Shown here: in pieces, positions 3,780-41,776 of the stretch
Layout: each line of letters opens with the position of its first letter
Position numbering within the stretch: position 1 is the stretch's first letter
Source of the DNA: an uncultured delta proteobacterium
GTDB lineage: Bacteria; Myxococcota_A; UBA9160
Reading direction: 5' to 3'
Length of the DNA stretch: 64,000 nucleotides
Assembly (NCBI GenBank): GCA_963773895.1
Contig: CAVZDA010000009.1
Coordinates: 2,814,933 to 2,878,932, forward strand
Notes under the pieces: model-generated
What the model saw: the letters and a program-made list of their open reading frames with translations, nothing else
What the model was told of the DNA's origin: nothing
The model's database searches: none
Position numbers and translations under genes: made by a program

Positions 3780-4417
3780 GCGCCGCGGCGCCGACGGCCC
3801 TGCAGTACGGCCTGCAGAACTGCGAGGTGTGCGGGCTGCTCTCGCGTCCGGAGCGGGGCGAGTCGGAGGGCCGCTGCCCGCGCTGCGACGAGGAGCTCAC
3901 GTTCCGCAAGCCCGGCAGCTTCCAACGCACCTGGGCGTACCTGATCGCGGCGGCGATCTGCTACGTGCCGGCCAACGTCCTCCCCGTGCTCACGACGACC
4001 ACGGCCGCGGGGGCGGAGTCCGACACGATCCTGCAGGGGGTGGTGCTGCTCTGGTCGCCGACGGGTTGGCCGCTGTCGCTCATCGTGCTGATCGCGAGCA
4101 TCATGATCCCCAGCGCGAAGATCCTCGCCCTCGGGTACCTGCTCGTGACGGCGCAGCGCGGCTCGGCGCGGAGCGACGCGCAGCGCATCAAGCTCTACCG
4201 CAGCGTGCACTTCATCGGACGCTGGTCGATGGTCGACGTGTTCGTCGACACGTTCACCGCCGCGCTCGTCCAGCTCCAGCCGCTGATGTCGGTGCAGCCC
4301 GCGCCCGGCCTGCTCTTCTTCGCGGCGGTGGTGGTCCTCACCATGCTCGCGGTCGAGTCCTTCGATCCGCGTCTGATCTGGGATTCCTCGACCGCGGGAG
4401 AGGTTCGACATGCCTGA
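3776..4417 (+). CDS. pqiA: PqiA-family integral membrane protein, second half (single PqiA domain with its own zinc ribbon)
   Basis: The GTG start overlaps the stop of the upstream gene (GTGA). The sequence CEVCGLL...CPRCDEEL is followed by TM helices, with a conserved RWSMVDVFVD segment. Confidence 0.7.
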   Translation: MSAAAPTALQYGLQNCEVCGLLSRPERGESEGRCPRCDEELTFRKPGSFQRTWAYLIAAAICYVPANVLPVLTTTTAAGAESDTILQGVVLLWSPTGWPLSLIVLIASIMIPSAKILALGYLLVTAQRGSARSDAQRIKLYRSVHFIGRWSMVDVFVDTFTAALVQLQPLMSVQPAPGLLFFAAVVVLTMLAVESFDPRLIWDSSTAGEVRHA

Positions 4418-30890: not shown

Positions 30891-31580
30891 ATGTATCGCA
30901 AGTTCGTGAACGCACGCAGCCCGCTCCGCCTGCTCGAGCAGGGCCTCCACGGAGGGCTCGGTCGGGGCAACCTCGGCGTCGTGCTCGCCGGCCACGGCGT
31001 GGGCAAGACGTCCTTCCTCGTCTGCGTGGCGCTCGACGAGCTGCTCCGCGACCAGGTCGTGCTGCACGTCTCGCTGGGGGACGGCGTCTCGCACGTGCGT
31101 GCCTACTACGACACGGTGTTCGACGAGCTCGCGGCGAGCACGCACCTCGAGAACCCGGCAGGGACGCGCGCCGAGATCGACCGCCGCCGCAGCATCCGCG
31201 CGTATCCCGCGTCGGCGTTCAGCGCGGCCAAGCTCCGGGAGGCGATCAAGATCGAGGGCGAGGCGGGAGCCCAGCCGGCGCTCGTGATCGTCGAGGGCTA
31301 CGAGCTGGGCGGCACCGACGCCGGCGAGCTCCGCGAGCTGAAGGCGCTGGCCCGCGAGCTCGACGCCGAGCTCTGGCTCTCCGTGGCCTGTCCGGACGAC
31401 CGCGTGCAGATCGTGCCGGCGTCCCTCCAGGCCGTCGGGGACACCGTGAGCGTCATCCTGTCGCTCGAGCCCTCGAACGGCACCGTGGCCCTGCGCGCCC
31501 TCAAGGACCACGACAACCGCGACGTGTCGGCCCTCCGCGTCTCCCTCGACCCGCGCACGCTGCTCCTCGTCCGGAGCTAG
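30891..31580 (+). CDS. RecA-superfamily ATPase (KaiC/GvpD/RAD55-like), hypothetical
   Basis: There is a Walker A (GHGVGKTSFL) and a Walker B-like LVIVEGYE. The protein is 229 aa. Confidence 0.45.
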   Translation: MYRKFVNARSPLRLLEQGLHGGLGRGNLGVVLAGHGVGKTSFLVCVALDELLRDQVVLHVSLGDGVSHVRAYYDTVFDELAASTHLENPAGTRAEIDRRRSIRAYPASAFSAAKLREAIKIEGEAGAQPALVIVEGYELGGTDAGELRELKALARELDAELWLSVACPDDRVQIVPASLQAVGDTVSVILSLEPSNGTVALRALKDHDNRDVSALRVSLDPRTLLLVRS

Positions 31581-32425
31581 CCCCGCCGCCTCCGCCCGCC
31601 GTCCGCGCGCGAATCGGCGTTGCGGTAGACCATCGCGACCGCGGCCTCGGGCGTCAGCACGCGGAAGGCGAGGCTCTCGATGAAGAAGAGCCGCACGCTG
31701 CGCTCCGAGTGGCCCGCGTATCCGATCGACAGGTCCTGCCCCACCGTCAGCTCGAAGTCGCTGCCGCGCGTGCTCATCACGAGCGCGCCGTTCACCGCCG
31801 GGGCCCAGACGAGCGGCCCGTCGACGGCGCGGCGGACGATCTCGAGGATCGGATAGCCGCCGCTCGCGGTCGCCTGGATCAGCCCCGCGTAGCAGCGTGG
31901 ACCGAGGGCGATGGCGTAGGGCCCGTCGACGCCCGCGTTGCGCAGCAGCCGGGTCGCGGAGGCGACCGCTCGCGGATAGAGCTCGAAGTCGTCCTCCAAC
32001 GCGACGGCGGCGTGCGGAGAGCGCTCGTCGATGCCCGAGATGCCGCCCGCGGCATAGCCGTGGAAGACCGCCGTGTCCTCGGCGCGGGCGATGCGCTTCG
32101 CGGCTTCCTGCAGGGCGCCCAGGTCGGGGTCCGCCGCGCCGCGGTCGATCGCGTCGAGCTCGGCGCGGGAGAGCTCGAACTCGGCGCGCAGCTCGACGAG
32201 CGCCAGCGCTTCGCGCCGGGTGGCGGCCACGCCCTCGAGCGGTGCGGTCCGGAGGGCCTCGACGCGCCCCGTGTTCACGCTCGCCGCCTCGAGGCCGAGG
32301 GGCCCCTCGAAGTCGACCAGCCTGCGCGCAGCGAGGTGCGTCTTCAGCACCCGGCGGGCCTCGTCGTCGAGGGCCTGCCAGCCGCGGGGCGAGATCGGCG
32401 CGAGGTCGCGGTGCAGGAGGCTCAC
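31577..32425 (-). CDS. Family 1 encapsulin nanocompartment shell protein (Linocin M18 / HK97 fold)
   Basis: The GTG start overlaps the stop of the cargo gene (GTGA). The N-terminus HRDLAPISPRGWQALDDEARRVLKTHLAARRLVDF and the C-terminus FRVLTPEAAVAMVY are both typical of encapsulins. Confidence 0.85.
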   Translation of the reverse strand: MSLLHRDLAPISPRGWQALDDEARRVLKTHLAARRLVDFEGPLGLEAASVNTGRVEALRTAPLEGVAATRREALALVELRAEFELSRAELDAIDRGAADPDLGALQEAAKRIARAEDTAVFHGYAAGGISGIDERSPHAAVALEDDFELYPRAVASATRLLRNAGVDGPYAIALGPRCYAGLIQATASGGYPILEIVRRAVDGPLVWAPAVNGALVMSTRGSDFELTVGQDLSIGYAGHSERSVRLFFIESLAFRVLTPEAAVAMVYRNADSRADGGRRRRG

Positions 32426-32802
32426 AGCGCGCTCCCTCCCTTCAAGCTCCCGATGCCCAGCGACGCGTCGGCCTGGGCCGCGGACGCCTCGCCGCCTGCC
32501 TTCGCGGCCTGCTCGCGCGCCACGATCGACCCGCTCGCGAACAGGCGCTCGCGCAGCTCGGCGTCGAACTTGGGATCGCGCCGGCGGATCCACTCGAGGG
32601 CCATCACGAAGTGCTCCTTCTCCTCGTCGCGGTTGTGGGCCAGGATCTCCCGCAGCTCGGGATCGGTCGCCGCGTCGACCCGCTGGTCGTACCAGTCGGC
32701 GGCCTCGAGCTCCTCCATCATCGACGCGAGCGCGCGATGGCGGTCCTTCGTCTCCTCGCGGAGCTTGTCCTCGTTCTCGTGGTATCCGGCCGAATTCGCC
32801 AT
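32422..32802 (-). CDS. Ferritin-like/rubrerythrin-like encapsulin cargo protein with a C-terminal targeting peptide
   Basis: The four-helix ferritin-like di-iron motifs are present (EEL...E..H, DEEKEHF). The C-terminus is SLGIGSLKGGSAL, matching the GSLKG-type encapsulin targeting peptide. It lies directly upstream of the shell gene. Confidence 0.8.
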   Translation of the reverse strand: MANSAGYHENEDKLREETKDRHRALASMMEELEAADWYDQRVDAATDPELREILAHNRDEEKEHFVMALEWIRRRDPKFDAELRERLFASGSIVAREQAAKAGGEASAAQADASLGIGSLKGGSAL

Positions 32803-32814
32803 GGCAGCTCCCTC

Positions 32815-33012
32815 CTACCGGTGGCCCAGCCGGCGCGCGATCATCTCCCGCAACGCCGACGCGTACACCAGCCCCGTCGTCACCGGAGCGGGCTTCGGCT
32901 TCTTCGGTGTGGCCGTCCGCTTCGACGTCGTGGTCTTCGTCTTGCGCGCCGTCGTGGCCGTCTGCTTCTTCACCGCCGCCTTCTTCTTCGCCGTCTTCTT
33001 CCTGGCCGCCAT
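32815..33012 (-). CDS. Small Lys/Thr/Ala-rich (histone H1-like) protein, first gene of the encapsulin operon
   Basis: An ATG follows a GGGAGGG RBS. The 65-aa product is MAARKKTAKKKAAVKKQTATTARKTKTTTSKRTATPKKPKPAPVTTGLVYASALREMIARRLGHR. There is a 12-nt gap to the cargo gene. Confidence 0.45.
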   Translation of the reverse strand: MAARKKTAKKKAAVKKQTATTARKTKTTTSKRTATPKKPKPAPVTTGLVYASALREMIARRLGHR

Positions 33013-33067
33013 CGAGCCCTCCCTTGGATGATTCGTCCTCCGAACGTTCGTAGCGTAGCCTTCCCGC

Positions 33068-34525
33068 ATGTCGGAAGCGCAGGGGGGGGCGGGGCCGCCG
33101 CGCGGCGTGAAGATCGTGTGCACGCTGGGACCCGCCACGTCCGACGCCGCTGCGATCGGCGCGCTCGTGAGGGCGGGCATGAACGTCGCGCGGCTCAACT
33201 TCTCGCACGGGACGTATGCGGAGCACGCGGAGCGCGCGCGCCTCGTGCGCGAGGCCGCGCGCGCCGAAGGGCGCCCCGTCGCGCTGCTCCAGGACCTGCG
33301 CGGGCCCAAGGTGCGGATCGGGCCGATGGCGGAGGACACCGTCGTCGTCACCGATGCTCCGTTCGACCTGGTTCGCGGGCCGGGGGAGGGCGACGCGCAG
33401 CGGGCGTACGTGGACGACGGGCTCTTCTTCGAGGAGGTGCGCGCGGGCGATCCGCTGCTCCTCGCCGACGGCGCGGTCTCGCTCGCGGTCGAGACGGTCG
33501 ACGCGGTGGGCGCGCGCTGCCGCGTCGTCGCGGGGGGAGCGCTCTCGTCGAGGAAGGGCATCAACGTGCCCCGCGGCCTGCTGCGGCGGCCGGTGCTGGG
33601 CGACGCCGACCGCGCGGCGCTCGCGTTCGGCACGCGCATCGGCGTCGATCTCGTGGGCGTGTCCTACGTCCGGAGCCCGGACGACCTGCGGAGCGTGCGC
33701 CGGGCGCTGCGCGAGCTCGACGCTGCCACGCCGCTCGTCGCGAAGATCGAGACCGCGGCGGCGATCGCGGGGCTCGACGCGATTCTCGAGGTGACGGACG
33801 CGGTGCTCGTGGCGCGCGGCGACCTCTCGCTCGAGACCCCGTTCGAGCGCGTCCCGCTCGAGCAGAAGCGCATCCTCGAGGCCGCGCGGCGGCGCGGCCG
33901 CCCGTCCATCACCGCGACGCAGATGCTGATGTCGATGGTGCGCGACCCGCTGCCGACGCGCGCCGAGGTGAACGACGTCGCGAACGCCGTGCTCGACGGA
34001 ACGGACGCCGTGATGCTCTCCGAGGAGACGGCCGTGGGCGCCCACCCCGCGCATGTGGTCGAGACGATGGCGCGCATCGCGTCCTATACCGAGCGAGGTC
34101 ATTCGCACCCCCTCCGCGGGTCGGCCGGGCTCTCGGCGGACCTCGCCGAGCTCGGCGTCGTGGCGGAGGCAGCCGCCCGGACGGCGCGCGAGGTGTCGGC
34201 GCGGGCCGTGATCGCGTGGTCGCGCGGCGGGCTCGCGGCGCGGCTCCTCTCGCGCGCGGGACCGGGCGTCCCGATCGTGGCGCCGACGCCGAGCCCGGCG
34301 ACGGCGCGCACCCTGGCGCTGGTGCGCGACGTGACGCCGATCGAGGTCGAGGCCGACACCGTCGACCCCGCCGCGGTGCGCGCCGTGCTCGGCGCCGCGG
34401 CCGGCGATGAGGGGAACGTCGTGGTGTTCGGACACGACCTCGACGGCGCCGGGCGGCGGATGGCGTGGCTGCGGGTCGCGCGGCTCGACGAGCCTTCGGG
34501 CTGGGCGCGCGATCCGAAGGTCTAG
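33068..34525 (+). CDS. pyk: Pyruvate kinase
   Basis: KIVCTLGPAT, NVARLNFSHG, the conserved MVARGDLS motif and the K+/Mg sites are all present. Confidence 0.9.
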   Translation: MSEAQGGAGPPRGVKIVCTLGPATSDAAAIGALVRAGMNVARLNFSHGTYAEHAERARLVREAARAEGRPVALLQDLRGPKVRIGPMAEDTVVVTDAPFDLVRGPGEGDAQRAYVDDGLFFEEVRAGDPLLLADGAVSLAVETVDAVGARCRVVAGGALSSRKGINVPRGLLRRPVLGDADRAALAFGTRIGVDLVGVSYVRSPDDLRSVRRALRELDAATPLVAKIETAAAIAGLDAILEVTDAVLVARGDLSLETPFERVPLEQKRILEAARRRGRPSITATQMLMSMVRDPLPTRAEVNDVANAVLDGTDAVMLSEETAVGAHPAHVVETMARIASYTERGHSHPLRGSAGLSADLAELGVVAEAAARTAREVSARAVIAWSRGGLAARLLSRAGPGVPIVAPTPSPATARTLALVRDVTPIEVEADTVDPAAVRAVLGAAAGDEGNVVVFGHDLDGAGRRMAWLRVARLDEPSGWARDPKV

Positions 34526-39043: not shown

Positions 39044-41776
39044 TCACCGCCCGGGCAGGGAGCAGGTGCCCGTGCGGGCGTGCGCGGCGTCCTCGAGGCA
39101 GCGCACGACGAGCGCGGTCCAGCCGGTCTGGTGGTTCGCACCGAGACCGCGGCCCTCGTCGCCGTGGAAGTACTCGTGGAAGAGGTGCAGACCCTGCCAG
39201 CGCGGATCGTCGCGGAAGCGCCAGCCCGCGCCCCGATACGGCTGGACGCCGGCGGCGTCCGGCAGGAAGATCGACGAGAGCCGCCGCGCGAGCTCGTGCG
39301 CGACCTCGCCGAGGTTCCGCAGCGTGCCCGATCCGACCGGACACTCGACGCGGAAGTCGTCCCCGTAGAAGTGGTGGTAGCGCTCCAGCGCCTCGATCAG
39401 GAGGTAGTTGAGCGGGAACCACACGGGTCCGCGCCAATTCGAGTTCCCGCCGAAGGACGCGGTACGGGACTCCGCCGGCGCGTAGTCGATGCGGAACTCC
39501 TGTCCGCGCGCCCGGAAGACGTACGGCTGCGTCACGTGCACGCGCGAGAGCGACCGGATGCCGTGGGGCGAGAGGAACTCCTCGGGGTCGAGCAGGTAGC
39601 GCAGCATCCGCGTCAGGCGCTCGCGCGTGGGGATCGCGAGCAGGCGGTGCGGTACGCCGTTGCCGTCCTCGTCCTTCGTCTCGAGATAGGAGAGCGTGCG
39701 TGCGAGGTCCTTCCGGTTCTCGAGGAACCACTCCATGCGCTTCCGGAAGCCGGGCAGGGCGTCGAGCACCGTGTCCTCGAGCACGGAGACGGCGATCAGC
39801 GGGACGATCCCCACGAGCGAGCGCACGCGCAGCTGCACCGGCGCCCCGCCGTCCACCACGAGGTGGTCGTAGTAGAACCCGTCCTCCTCGTTCCACAGGC
39901 CGGTGCCGCCGAGGTGGTTCATCGCGTCGCAGATCCCGATGAAGTGCTCGAAGAATTTCGAGGCGAGGTCCTCGCAGGCCGGATCCTCCTTCGAGAGCTC
40001 GATCGCCATCGCGAGCATCGTGATGCAGTAGAAGGCCATCCACGCCGTTCCGTCGGCCTGCTCGAGCACGACGCCGGAGAGGACCGGCTGGGAGCGGTCG
40101 AACACGCCGATGTTGTCGAGACCGAGGAAGCCGCCGGCGAAGAGGCCCTTGCCGCGCGGGTCCTTGCGGTTCACCCACCACGTGAAGCTCAGGAGGTGCT
40201 TCTGGAAGCAGCGCGAGAGGAACACGCGGTCCCGCTTCCCGCGCTCTCCCGTGAGCTTGTACACGCGCCACGCCGCCCACGCGCCCACGGGAGGGTTCAC
40301 GTCGTCGAACGAGAACTCGTACGCCGGAAGCTGACCCTTCGGGTGCATGTACCACTCGCGCAGGAAGAGCACGAGCTGCTCCTTCGCGAACTCAGGGTCG
40401 ATCCGCGCGAAGGGGATCATGTGGAAGGCATGGTCCCACGCCGCGTACCATGGGTACTCCCACTTGTCGGGCATCGAGATCACGTCGCGGTTGTAGAGGT
40501 GCTCCCAGTCCGTGTTGCGCACCAGGCGGCGCTCGGGCGGCGGCTGCGGCTGCGACGGGTCGCCGTCGAGCCAGGCCTTCACGTCGTAGTGGTAGAACTG
40601 CTTCGTCCACAGGAGTCCCGCGTACGCCTGACGCGTCACCGCGCGCTCCGCCGGATCGAGCTCGATCGCGATGCGGGCGTCGTAGAACGCGTCTGCTTCC
40701 CGGATCCGGCGCTCGAAGATCGCGTCGAACTCGGGGCCGAACGGACGGAGCGGCGACTGGGAGGCGGCGTGGAGCCGGAGCTTCACCACCTCTCGGGCTC
40801 CCGGTGCGAGCGCGAGCGTGTAGTGCGCCGCCGCCTTCGTGCCGACCGGCTCCGGGCTCACCGCGTCCGCGCGTCCGCCGACGACGCGCTCGTGGAAGGC
40901 GTCCTTCACGAACGGGCTCGCGTTCGGGAACTGGAAGAGCCGTGCCGCGTTCGTCTCGTTCTCCGTGAAGTAGAGCGGCGGGGGCGCGCCGGCGGCGGGC
41001 GGATGCAGCTCGAGCCGGTACGCGCCGAGCGACGTGTGCTCCGCGAGGATCGTCTGGTCCCGCACGCGCGAGAGGCGGGGCTTCGGCCAGTAGCCCTCGC
41101 CGGCGCGTCCCCACGACCACGTGTTGCGGAACCAGAGCGTCGGCAGGAGATGGAGCGTCTCGGGCGTGGGCCCCTGGTTCGTCACCGTGATCCGGATCGC
41201 GAGGTCGTCGGTGTCGTCCTTCGCGTACTCGACCAGCACGTCGAAGAACCGGCCGTCGTCCAGCAGGCCGGTGTCCTCGAGCTCGAACTCCGGGTCGTCC
41301 CGTGTGCGGCTGCGGTTCTCCTCCGCCAGCCGCGCGTACGGGAACTCCGCCGTCGGGTAGCGGTAGAGCCCCTTGAGATAGGAGTGGGTCGGCGTCGCGT
41401 CGAGATAGAACCAACACTCCTTCGCGTCTTCGCCGTGGTTGCCCTCCCCGTTGGTGAGACCGAAGAGGCGTTCCTTCAGGATCGGATCCCGTCCGTTCCA
41501 GAGCGCGATCGAGAAGCAGAGGCGCCCCTCGCGGTCGCAGATGCCGAGGAGGCCGTCCTCGCCCCAGCGGTACGCGCGGCTGCGCGCGTGGTCGTGGGGG
41601 AAGTACTCCCAGGCCGTGCCGCCCGGCGAGTAGTCCTCGCGGACCGTTCCCCACTGACGCTCGGAGAGGTAGGGACCCCAGCGCTTCCAGTTCCTGGTGC
41701 GCCGGGCGTCCTCGCGCAGTCGCAGGGACTCCGGGTCGCTCTCCCTCGGCAAGTACACCCCGCTTTCGCGGGCCAT
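39044..41776 (-). CDS. Glycoside hydrolase family 63-like enzyme (MGH/GgH-like glucosidase)
   Basis: The N-terminus RNWKRWGPYLSERQWGTVREDYS...HDHARSRAYRWGEDGLLG is typical of bacterial GH63. The C-terminal region is an (alpha/alpha)6 barrel. The product is 910 aa. Confidence 0.7.
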   Translation of the reverse strand: MARESGVYLPRESDPESLRLREDARRTRNWKRWGPYLSERQWGTVREDYSPGGTAWEYFPHDHARSRAYRWGEDGLLGICDREGRLCFSIALWNGRDPILKERLFGLTNGEGNHGEDAKECWFYLDATPTHSYLKGLYRYPTAEFPYARLAEENRSRTRDDPEFELEDTGLLDDGRFFDVLVEYAKDDTDDLAIRITVTNQGPTPETLHLLPTLWFRNTWSWGRAGEGYWPKPRLSRVRDQTILAEHTSLGAYRLELHPPAAGAPPPLYFTENETNAARLFQFPNASPFVKDAFHERVVGGRADAVSPEPVGTKAAAHYTLALAPGAREVVKLRLHAASQSPLRPFGPEFDAIFERRIREADAFYDARIAIELDPAERAVTRQAYAGLLWTKQFYHYDVKAWLDGDPSQPQPPPERRLVRNTDWEHLYNRDVISMPDKWEYPWYAAWDHAFHMIPFARIDPEFAKEQLVLFLREWYMHPKGQLPAYEFSFDDVNPPVGAWAAWRVYKLTGERGKRDRVFLSRCFQKHLLSFTWWVNRKDPRGKGLFAGGFLGLDNIGVFDRSQPVLSGVVLEQADGTAWMAFYCITMLAMAIELSKEDPACEDLASKFFEHFIGICDAMNHLGGTGLWNEEDGFYYDHLVVDGGAPVQLRVRSLVGIVPLIAVSVLEDTVLDALPGFRKRMEWFLENRKDLARTLSYLETKDEDGNGVPHRLLAIPTRERLTRMLRYLLDPEEFLSPHGIRSLSRVHVTQPYVFRARGQEFRIDYAPAESRTASFGGNSNWRGPVWFPLNYLLIEALERYHHFYGDDFRVECPVGSGTLRNLGEVAHELARRLSSIFLPDAAGVQPYRGAGWRFRDDPRWQGLHLFHEYFHGDEGRGLGANHQTGWTALVVRCLEDAAHARTGTCSLPGR

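Follow-up and report, generated by a model that had tools for sequence, protein, structure and literature searches.

A predicted EncFtn-type family 1 encapsulin gene pair lying behind a lineage-restricted Lys-rich gene in an uncultured delta proteobacterium

We propose, with a probability of about 0.93, that positions 31577–32802 on the minus strand of the window (the whole 64,000-nucleotide stretch of DNA analysed here) code for an iron-storage nanocompartment built on a classical family 1 encapsulin, of the type known from R. rubrum and H. ochraceum. On its sequence relationships, the locus would be one more EncFtn-type family 1 encapsulin, an ordinary textbook two-gene iron-storage pair in a family of which thousands of members have been catalogued and several structures solved. 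A small Lys-rich gene stands immediately upstream of the pair, and its distribution marks it as a resident gene of the lineage rather than a conserved third component. The features of the locus are as follows:

33012..32815, minus strand: Lys-rich ORF, with ATG at 33012 and TAG stop at 32815–32817, 65 aa
32802..32422, minus strand: predicted EncFtn cargo gene, with ATG at 32802 and TGA stop at 32422–32424, 126 aa
32437..32463, minus strand: putative targeting peptide SLGIGSLKG at the cargo C-terminus, followed by GSAL before the stop
32422..32425, minus strand: GTGA overlap of the cargo stop with the shell start, read directly from the sequence
32425..31577, minus strand: predicted family 1 encapsulin shell gene, with GTG start at 32425 and TAG stop at 31577–31579, 282 aa
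31592..32801, minus strand: presence/absence block of 1,210 bp, covering EncFtn and nearly all of the shell gene, from blastn against a sister population

All three ORFs are read from the sequence on the minus strand at these coordinates. With GC3 values in the named frames of 0.95 for the shell, 0.94 for the cargo and 0.97 for the Lys-rich gene, and with homologues found for all three proteins alike, they are no chance artefact of a 72% GC genome. The gap between the Lys-rich ORF and the cargo ATG is exactly 12 nt (GAGGGAGCTGCC), as the first-pass annotation had it, and contains a Shine-Dalgarno-like ribosome-binding site, GGAGGGAG, ahead of the cargo ATG; AAGGGAGGG precedes the Lys-rich ATG by 5 nt. 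The called neighbours are housekeeping genes, namely those for EF-G, a 229-aa P-loop-like protein, pyruvate kinase, TerB and creatininase. A convergent gene has its stop codon overlapped by the encapsulin pair. A consensus scan of 31300–33400 found no promoter or terminator, such consensus being uninformative in DNA of 72% GC that is probably myxobacterial.

The shell gene is predicted to encode a family 1 encapsulin with the HK97 fold. Its product matches the NCBIfam equivalog NF041155 (encap_f1) at 6.3e-92 with 307.7 bits (cutoff 100) across profile positions 1–261 of 261, and Pfam PF04454 at 4.8e-86 with 288.6 bits (cutoff 24.3) across positions 1–253 of 253; these full-length matches bear out the earlier assignment to family 1, which had named an HK97 or encapsulin profile as its check. 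The termini on which that assignment was built are likewise both present—the protein begins with MSLLHRDLAPISPRGWQALDDE and reaches the conserved end FRVLTPEAAV, which is followed by the tail AMVYRNADSRADGGRRRRG. A PDB search recovered 37 solved encapsulin chains, led by 9ry4 at 3.4e-79, with further matches to the H. ochraceum shell (7odw, 2e-77), Cfp29 (~1e-68) and T. maritima (3dkt, 5e-47), and distant ones to M. xanthus EncA (2e-16) and 6nj8 (7e-11). Because the closest solved relatives, including the H. ochraceum shell, are T=1, we infer a T=1 60-mer for the present shell. A full-length match to the family 1 profile, which describes HK97-fold proteins lacking the extended N-arm, an adjacent cargo gene with a targeting peptide and a neighbourhood free of phage morphogenesis genes are all found here, as in members of family 1. 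The basic C-terminal tail of 17 residues (MVYRNADSRADGGRRRRG) extends beyond the family profile; it is unusual in being Arg-rich (GGRRRRG), and its final four codons fall within DNA that derives from the flank. Basic C-terminal tails are recurrent among the shells of the same clade.

The product of the cargo gene is predicted to be an encapsulated ferritin (EncFtn). It is matched by Pfam PF22277 (EncFtn-like; 7.3e-38, 128.7 bits, cutoff 27) and TIGR04535 (3.1e-40, 136.7 bits, cutoff 125), and in the PDB by R. rubrum EncFtn (33bf at 4.7e-41 and 5da5 at 3.7e-34) and its H. ochraceum counterpart (7oe2 at 5e-32). The alignment to R. rubrum EncFtn runs over residues 4–126, tail SLGIGSLKG included. 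The predicted ferroxidase domain spans residues 7–89, and a flexible Ala/Gly-rich linker follows at ~93–113. The di-iron ferroxidase ligands of R. rubrum are Glu32, Glu62 and His65, which were mutated by He et al., and the site is formed between subunits of the decamer (PMC5012862). The equivalent residues in the present cargo, E31, E61 and H64, are invariant in 77/77 aligned sequences, and the entry-site residues E31/E34/W38 (R. rubrum numbering) are identical, occurring as E30/E33/W37. An AlphaFold2 single-sequence model (mean pLDDT 70, with a low-confidence tail) places helices at 3–44, 48–75 and 77–89; this predicted fold, two long helices and a short one, agrees with the description of the R. 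rubrum crystal structure (PMC5012862). Hence, of the four-helix ferritin-like cargo first proposed, the ferritin-like relationship holds, and the self-contained four-helix form gives way to a pair of long helices with a third, short one.

The cargo protein ends in ...ADASLGIGSLKGGSAL, and its C-terminus, SLGIGSLKGGSAL, nearly matches the end of R. rubrum EncFtn, SLGIGSLKGEAAL; the published targeting consensus of family 1 is SDGSLGIGSLKRS (PMC8346489). Adjacent EncFtn orthologues carry the pattern L-x-[IVL]-G-x-L-[KRHC] within their last 30 residues in 76/76 cases, 41 of the 76 having the exact form SLGIGSL[KR], and the C-terminal cargo-loading peptide claimed at the outset is thereby upheld. 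Within the 64-kb window this is the sole targeting motif near a stop codon: the remaining two matches to the motif are 47 and 982 codons away from a stop, and no further targeting-peptide ORF was found there. EncFtn sits directly upstream of the shell gene in 76/80 related genome loci; a 4-nt start/stop overlap joins the two genes in 32/76 of these, and other overlaps do so in 11 more. The GTGA overlap described for the present pair was confirmed at 32425–32422, and such an arrangement argues for translational coupling of cargo and shell.

Among characterized systems, that of R. rubrum (Rru_A0973/Rru_A0974; the PDB 5da5, 33bf, 9ry4 group) is alike in its two-gene order, cargo then shell, in the alignments of EncFtn (5e-41 over residues 4–126) and shell (3e-79 over 263 residues), and in its ferroxidase ligands, entry-site residues and near-matching tail. 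The present locus differs in the shorter linker between its ferroxidase domain and targeting peptide, in the different, Arg-rich tail of its shell, and in its context, with the pair abutting the Lys-rich gene and overlapping the stop codon of the convergent gene. The Enc:EncFtn system of H. ochraceum (7odw, 7oe2), also from Myxococcota, gives a full-length shell alignment at 2e-77 and an EncFtn alignment at 5e-32. Its T=1 shell is built from 60 subunits and holds four EncFtn decamers (Ross et al. 2022; PMC8791618), and it offers the best structural model for the present locus.

On the basis of these homologues, we posit that EncFtn subunits of two long helices would, with Fe(II), form ring-shaped decamers having a di-iron ferroxidase centre, with E31, E61 and H64 as its ligands, at each dimer interface. 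The SLGIGSLKG peptide at the end of the flexible linker would dock in a pocket of the shell protein's inner surface, such that EncFtn decamers become enclosed during assembly of a shell of probably 60 subunits (T=1, ~24 nm). Fe(II) would then enter via the shell pores, be oxidised by EncFtn and be kept as an Fe(III) mineral in the shell lumen. The GTGA overlap would couple translation of cargo and shell, and the two-gene block would most likely be transcribed from, or through, the Lys-rich gene, because 12 nt are too few to hold a separate promoter for it. All functional steps are drawn from homologues at ~55–70% identity, so that the T number, the assembly of decamers, the mineralisation of iron, the shared transcript and the role of the Lys-rich protein stand here as predictions rather than observations.

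The Lys-rich protein consists of 44 disordered, Lys/Thr/Ala-rich N-terminal residues and a single conserved C-terminal helix (TGLVYASALREMIARRLGHR), which AlphaFold2 predicts at 45–62. Compared with its orthologue on L081, a contig of a sister population, the last 21 codons, which specify this helix, show 7 synonymous and 0 nonsynonymous differences, a pattern that points to purifying selection on a real gene. Its relatives differ in how many copies of a pentapeptide repeat (TAKTK) they contain. It has no match in Pfam, NCBIfam, PHROG or the PDB (the last at E <= 10). A word-indexed search of 5.8 billion proteins returned one homologue, and phmmer, run in full against 1.84 billion representatives, returned the same one together with a low-complexity match, amounting to one real homologue cluster. 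Its resemblance to histone H1-like Lys/Ala-rich proteins, such as chlamydial Hc1/Hc2 and those with AlgP-type repeats, is one of composition only: it has no detectable sequence homology to any family in Pfam or NCBIfam or to any PDB chain, and its conserved C-terminal helix is unique. This composition nonetheless suggests nucleic-acid binding.

By tblastn and a composition scan, the gene was recovered at 0/80 related encapsulin loci; the composition scan, which took in 81 loci, picked up the L081 orthologue and otherwise just two longer proteins that are unrelated. Conversely, it occurs without any encapsulin in the closest syntenic relatives, the contigs L081/L085, L084, L086 and L087, where it likewise stands between pyruvate kinase and the 229-aa gene. 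From its absence at 80/80 loci and its presence without encapsulin in the sister population, the Lys-rich gene is thus resident and lineage-restricted, and no conserved component of the encapsulin system. As for transcription, the 12-nt gap and the lack of a terminator-like site make it probable that the Lys-rich gene comes first in a transcript shared with the pair. The suggestion that it may be a further operon member therefore survives in the sense of a probable common transcript and fails in the sense of conserved membership in the system.

The sister population also delimits the encapsulin genes themselves. By blastn, L081 1–6211 aligns with window positions 39063–32802 at 85.5% identity and L081 6323–9200 with window positions 31591–28718 at 92.5%, and these contigs carry 111 bp of unrelated sequence in place of the 1,210-bp block of EncFtn and shell, with identical breakpoints in L084, L086, L087 and L089. 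The 145-nt spacer of a cassette-less relative, folded as RNA in a terminator test, did no better than shuffles (z = -0.19). The closest genome, the Myxococcota MAG L001 (shell identity 77%), has the same two-gene block in a different neighbourhood, where the gene before EncFtn is unrelated to the Lys-rich gene. Read from these comparisons, EncFtn and shell make up an apparently mobile two-gene block; because the cassette-less contigs are all from one sister population, they leave its gain versus loss unpolarised.

No result runs counter to the core assignment. Other readings of the locus have to be weighed against an EncFtn-type system of the R. rubrum and H. ochraceum kind. Encapsulins and HK97 capsids share a common fold, and phage capsids are known false positives in encapsulin searches (PMC8346489), so the shell gene could in principle represent a prophage HK97-type major capsid protein or its remnant. 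We regard this as having a negligible probability: the shell matches the family 1 equivalog model in full and far above its cutoff, it has no match among PHROG phage families at E <= 0.01, a cargo gene with a targeting peptide lies immediately upstream of it, and the called neighbours (EF-G, pyruvate kinase, TerB, creatininase) include no terminase, portal or protease gene. Profile, PHROG, cargo and neighbour evidence together effectively refute a phage capsid. The system of M. xanthus, in which EncA is accompanied by EncB/EncC/EncD, is of the function class predicted for the present one, that of iron-mineralising encapsulins of family 1 whose cargo is EncFtn-like; it forms a larger T=3 shell and its cargo is encoded at dispersed loci. 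That the present locus is of this type, with a T=3 EncA shell, EncB/EncC-type cargo and more cargo encoded elsewhere, finds some encouragement in the probable Myxococcota origin of the window, as its closest shell (77% identity) is from a Myxococcota MAG, in the EncFtn-like nature of EncB and EncC, and in weak matches of the cargo to EncB_fam and EncC. However, the shell matches EncA at 2e-16 as against 3e-79 and 2e-77 for its best solved relatives, with the EncA chains 4pt2 and 7s20 falling far below the match to the T=1 H. ochraceum shell. The cargo reaches 82.4 bits with NCBIfam EncB_fam (cutoff 90), 30 bits with EncB (cutoff 210) and at best 2e-7 with M. xanthus EncC; an EncB/EncC-type cargo is rejected in that the EncB_fam and EncB scores are both under cutoff. 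Nor is there another targeting-peptide ORF in the 64 kb, a scan confined to the window within the genome. On shell and cargo scores we reject a T=3 system of the M. xanthus type as highly improbable. Accordingly, the first-pass comparison with the iron-mineralising nanocompartment of Myxococcus is retained, by homology, for the type of compartment and amended for its closest kin, which are those of R. rubrum and H. ochraceum, M. xanthus being more distant.

A different departure from the two-gene reading would make the Lys-rich protein a functional third component, one that might serve as nucleoid tether, as regulator, or as cargo or partner of a non-canonical sort linking iron storage to DNA protection. 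Its gene is real and under apparent purifying selection, has a strong ribosome-binding site of its own and sits on the same strand just 12 nt ahead of the pair, a spacing too tight for a separate promoter; the shell bears an Arg-rich tail in a clade where basic tails recur, and an encapsulin shell from M. xanthus has been shown to bind DNA and condense it in vitro (PMC9321382). Against this, the gene is missing at every one of the related encapsulin loci, the closest (L001) included, it holds the same position in syntenic contigs that have no encapsulin, and the protein has no targeting-peptide motif, which leaves such a role very unlikely. A related scenario, to which we give equally little weight, is that a promoterless EncFtn and shell block landed behind a probably nucleoid-associated basic gene and shares its transcript, and that the Arg-rich tail, exposed on the outside of the shell, and the Lys-rich protein might together place the compartments at the nucleoid for Dps-like DNA protection. 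If true, expression of the iron-storage compartment would be tied to that of a DNA-associated protein; the conservation data argue against an obligate partnership of the two.

For the preferred reading, a two-gene EncFtn-type encapsulin, the locus adds little of value beyond annotation. Two aspects of it are of modest value. It offers a caution for genome-neighbourhood mining of encapsulins, in that the tight spacing of an upstream gene does not amount to membership in the system. Together with its sister population, it also provides a natural presence/absence pair with base-level breakpoints at 85–92% nucleotide identity, which would fit cargo and shell moving as a compact unit that carries no space for a promoter.

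The locus belongs to the Flp/EncFtn class of family 1 encapsulin systems, the second largest cargo class across 2,383 catalogued systems of this family (PMC8346489), and its genes are laid out as follows:

GTG 32425 to TAG 31577-31579, minus strand: shell, 282 aa, carrying DLAPISPRGWQALDDE towards the N-terminus and FRVLTPEAAV towards the C-terminus
32802..32422, minus strand: EncFtn cargo, 126 aa, with the C-terminal end ...ADASLGIGSLKGGSAL
33012..32815, minus strand: Lys-rich ORF, 65 aa
30891-31580, plus strand: convergent 229-aa gene with a Walker-A-like GHGVGKTS motif

The shell is recognized end to end by the NCBIfam equivalog for family 1 encapsulin shells (NF041155; 6.3e-92, scoring 307.7 bits where the cutoff is 100) and by Pfam PF04454 (4.8e-86), bearing out its initial assignment, and the PHROG phage families returned no match for it. 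Among solved structures, its top match is the 9ry4 group, a shell deposited with an R. rubrum-type EncFtn (3.4e-79), with further matches to the Haliangium ochraceum shell 7odw (2e-77), mycobacterial Cfp29 (about 1e-68) and T. maritima (5e-47), whereas M. xanthus EncA (4pt2, 7s20) and chain 6nj8 are reached only at about 2e-16 and 7e-11, respectively. A 17-residue tail, MVYRNADSRADGGRRRRG (31577-31630, minus strand), extends past the family profile, and its final four codons lie in DNA that is homologous to flanking sequence in the cassette-less relatives. Short basic tails (KRAKRA, KKGEKKGR, GKGKAKK, KRAAPAKRRGR) recur on shells of the same EncFtn-type clade, at the 3′ ends of the shell genes in related loci L003, L006, L013, L019, L020, L022, L025, L027 and L067.

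The cargo is matched by PF22277 (EncFtn-like; 7.3e-38) and TIGR04535 (136.7 bits, cutoff 125) and scores below cutoff against the M. xanthus EncB models. As both proteins pass curated naming models, standard pipelines would label them correctly. R. rubrum EncFtn has two main helices and forms a metal-dependent decamer, with a di-iron ferroxidase centre of Glu32, Glu62 and His65 (He et al., PMC5012862). Its alignment covers residues 4-126 of the cargo, tail included (4.7e-41; SLGIGSLKGEAAL in R. rubrum versus SLGIGSLKGGSAL here), and equates these ligands with E31, E61 and H64, and the entry-site residues E31/E34/W38 with E30/E33/W37. In the single-sequence AlphaFold2 model, residues 3-44, 48-75 and 77-89 are helical, and the linker and tail beyond them are modelled with low confidence. 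Thus, of the earlier description as a four-helix ferritin-like protein, the ferritin-like affiliation stands but the helix count does not: the predicted subunit has two long helices and the EncFtn architecture, rather than a single-chain four-helix bundle. R. rubrum and H. ochraceum provide the nearest characterized models, rather than Myxococcus xanthus; the first-pass annotation had likened the locus to nanocompartments of Myxococcus.

A short C-terminal localization sequence with Gly-Ser-Leu-Lys directs R. rubrum EncFtn into its shell (PMC5012862), and for targeting peptides of family 1 the published consensus reads SDGSLGIGSLKRS (PMC8346489). The cargo C-terminus, previously read as such a peptide, indeed aligns with the R. 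rubrum tail; no other ORF in the whole 64-kb window has a targeting-like motif near its stop. With each species represented by a single genome, a scan recovered 80 related loci (shells 51-77% identical) spanning Alpha-, Beta- and Gammaproteobacteria, Binatia, Acidimicrobiia and Myxococcota. In 76 of the 80 an EncFtn homologue ends at most a few bases from the shell start, and the motif is conserved in every one: L-x-[IVL]-G-x-L-[KRHC] lies inside the last 30 residues of 76/76, with exact SLGIGSL[KR] in 41. The ferroxidase ligands are invariant (77/77 EncFtn sequences). The GTGA shared by the cargo TGA and shell GTG is confirmed, as are all the other sequence-level points of the first-pass annotation, and the same 4-nt overlap occurs in 32 of the 76 EncFtn loci. 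The core interpretation of the first-pass annotation, an encapsulin operon with a ferritin-like cargo, is accordingly supported. Three alphaproteobacterial EncFtn orthologues (L003, L015 and L027; C-termini at about 3940-3997) show a doubled targeting-like motif, SLAIGSLHGIGSLSVSGS. Four loci with Acidimicrobiales-type shells (L051, L065, L070, L079; 52-54% identical) have no upstream EncFtn homologue and may employ other cargo.

The Lys-rich ORF had been proposed as a further operon member. GC3 is 0.94-0.97 across the three minus-strand ORFs (window 72% GC), agreeing with expectation for real genes; for the Lys-rich ORF, a GC3 of 0.97 together with seven synonymous and no nonsynonymous differences from its sole homologue cluster over the last 21 codons indicates that it is real. 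It lies 12 nt from the cargo ATG, with GGAGGGAG inside those 12 nt, and has AAGGGAGGG of its own upstream; given this gap and no terminator-like site found in 31300-33400, it is likely co-transcribed with EncFtn and the shell. The predicted protein has 44 disordered basic residues and a single helix (45-62), and has no relative in Pfam, NCBIfam, PHROG or PDB. Searches spanning 5.8 billion clustered proteins and a set of 1.84 billion representatives gave a single true homologue cluster. It sits on contigs that keep synteny with the window (EF-G, 229-aa gene, Lys-rich gene, pyruvate kinase, TerB, creatininase) and carry no encapsulin; conversely, neither a homologue nor a compositionally similar small ORF occurs in any of the 80 encapsulin loci. 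Hence, the Lys-rich gene is a resident gene of a small lineage and not a conserved component of the encapsulin system.

In the cassette-less sister population (L084 3021-3233; L085 3372-3569; L086 3074-3286; L087 3317-3544) the Lys-rich orthologues are 65, 70 or 75 aa long, by TAKTK pentapeptide copy number, with an invariant C-terminal 21 residues; the window copy lacks the repeat. The exact 65-aa protein of the window is absent from a 15-billion-protein collection that includes the shell, cargo and 229-aa proteins of the same contig; in the source assembly, the gene was apparently uncalled or called from a different start. The divergent pyruvate kinase ATG (33068) is 55 bp from the Lys-rich ATG, so both promoters must sit in or overlap 33013-33067, which is ~87% identical in the sister population.

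Comparison by blastn with these contigs places breakpoints at 32802 and 31591, with flanks 85.5% and 92.5% identical, and 111 unrelated bases standing where the window has 1,210 bp of EncFtn and shell. The pair is thus a compact block present in one lineage and absent from its sister. Beyond it, one palindromic CTAG (31577-31580) serves the TAG stops of both the shell and the 229-aa gene, which is ~92% identical at the nucleotide level in the sister population, falls in no family by Pfam and NCBIfam profiles, and weakly matches the P-loop of DnaB-like helicases in PHROG (1.6e-5). As all cassette-less contigs come from one population, they do not polarize gain versus loss. The closest encapsulin locus, in a Myxococcota MAG (L001; shell 77% identical), has the same two-gene block in a different context, with an unrelated ORF 27 nt upstream on the same strand and a convergent 267-aa ORF without annotation downstream, which favors mobility of the pair.

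By analogy with characterized homologues, we propose that C-terminal peptides would anchor EncFtn decamers on the inside of a shell of probably 60 subunits (T=1), the H. ochraceum T=1 shell holding four decamers (PMC8791618). Fe(II) admitted by the shell pores would be oxidized at inter-subunit ferroxidase centres, with mineral building up in the lumen. In vitro, iron sequestration by the R. rubrum complex reached ~4,150 ions (PMC5012862).
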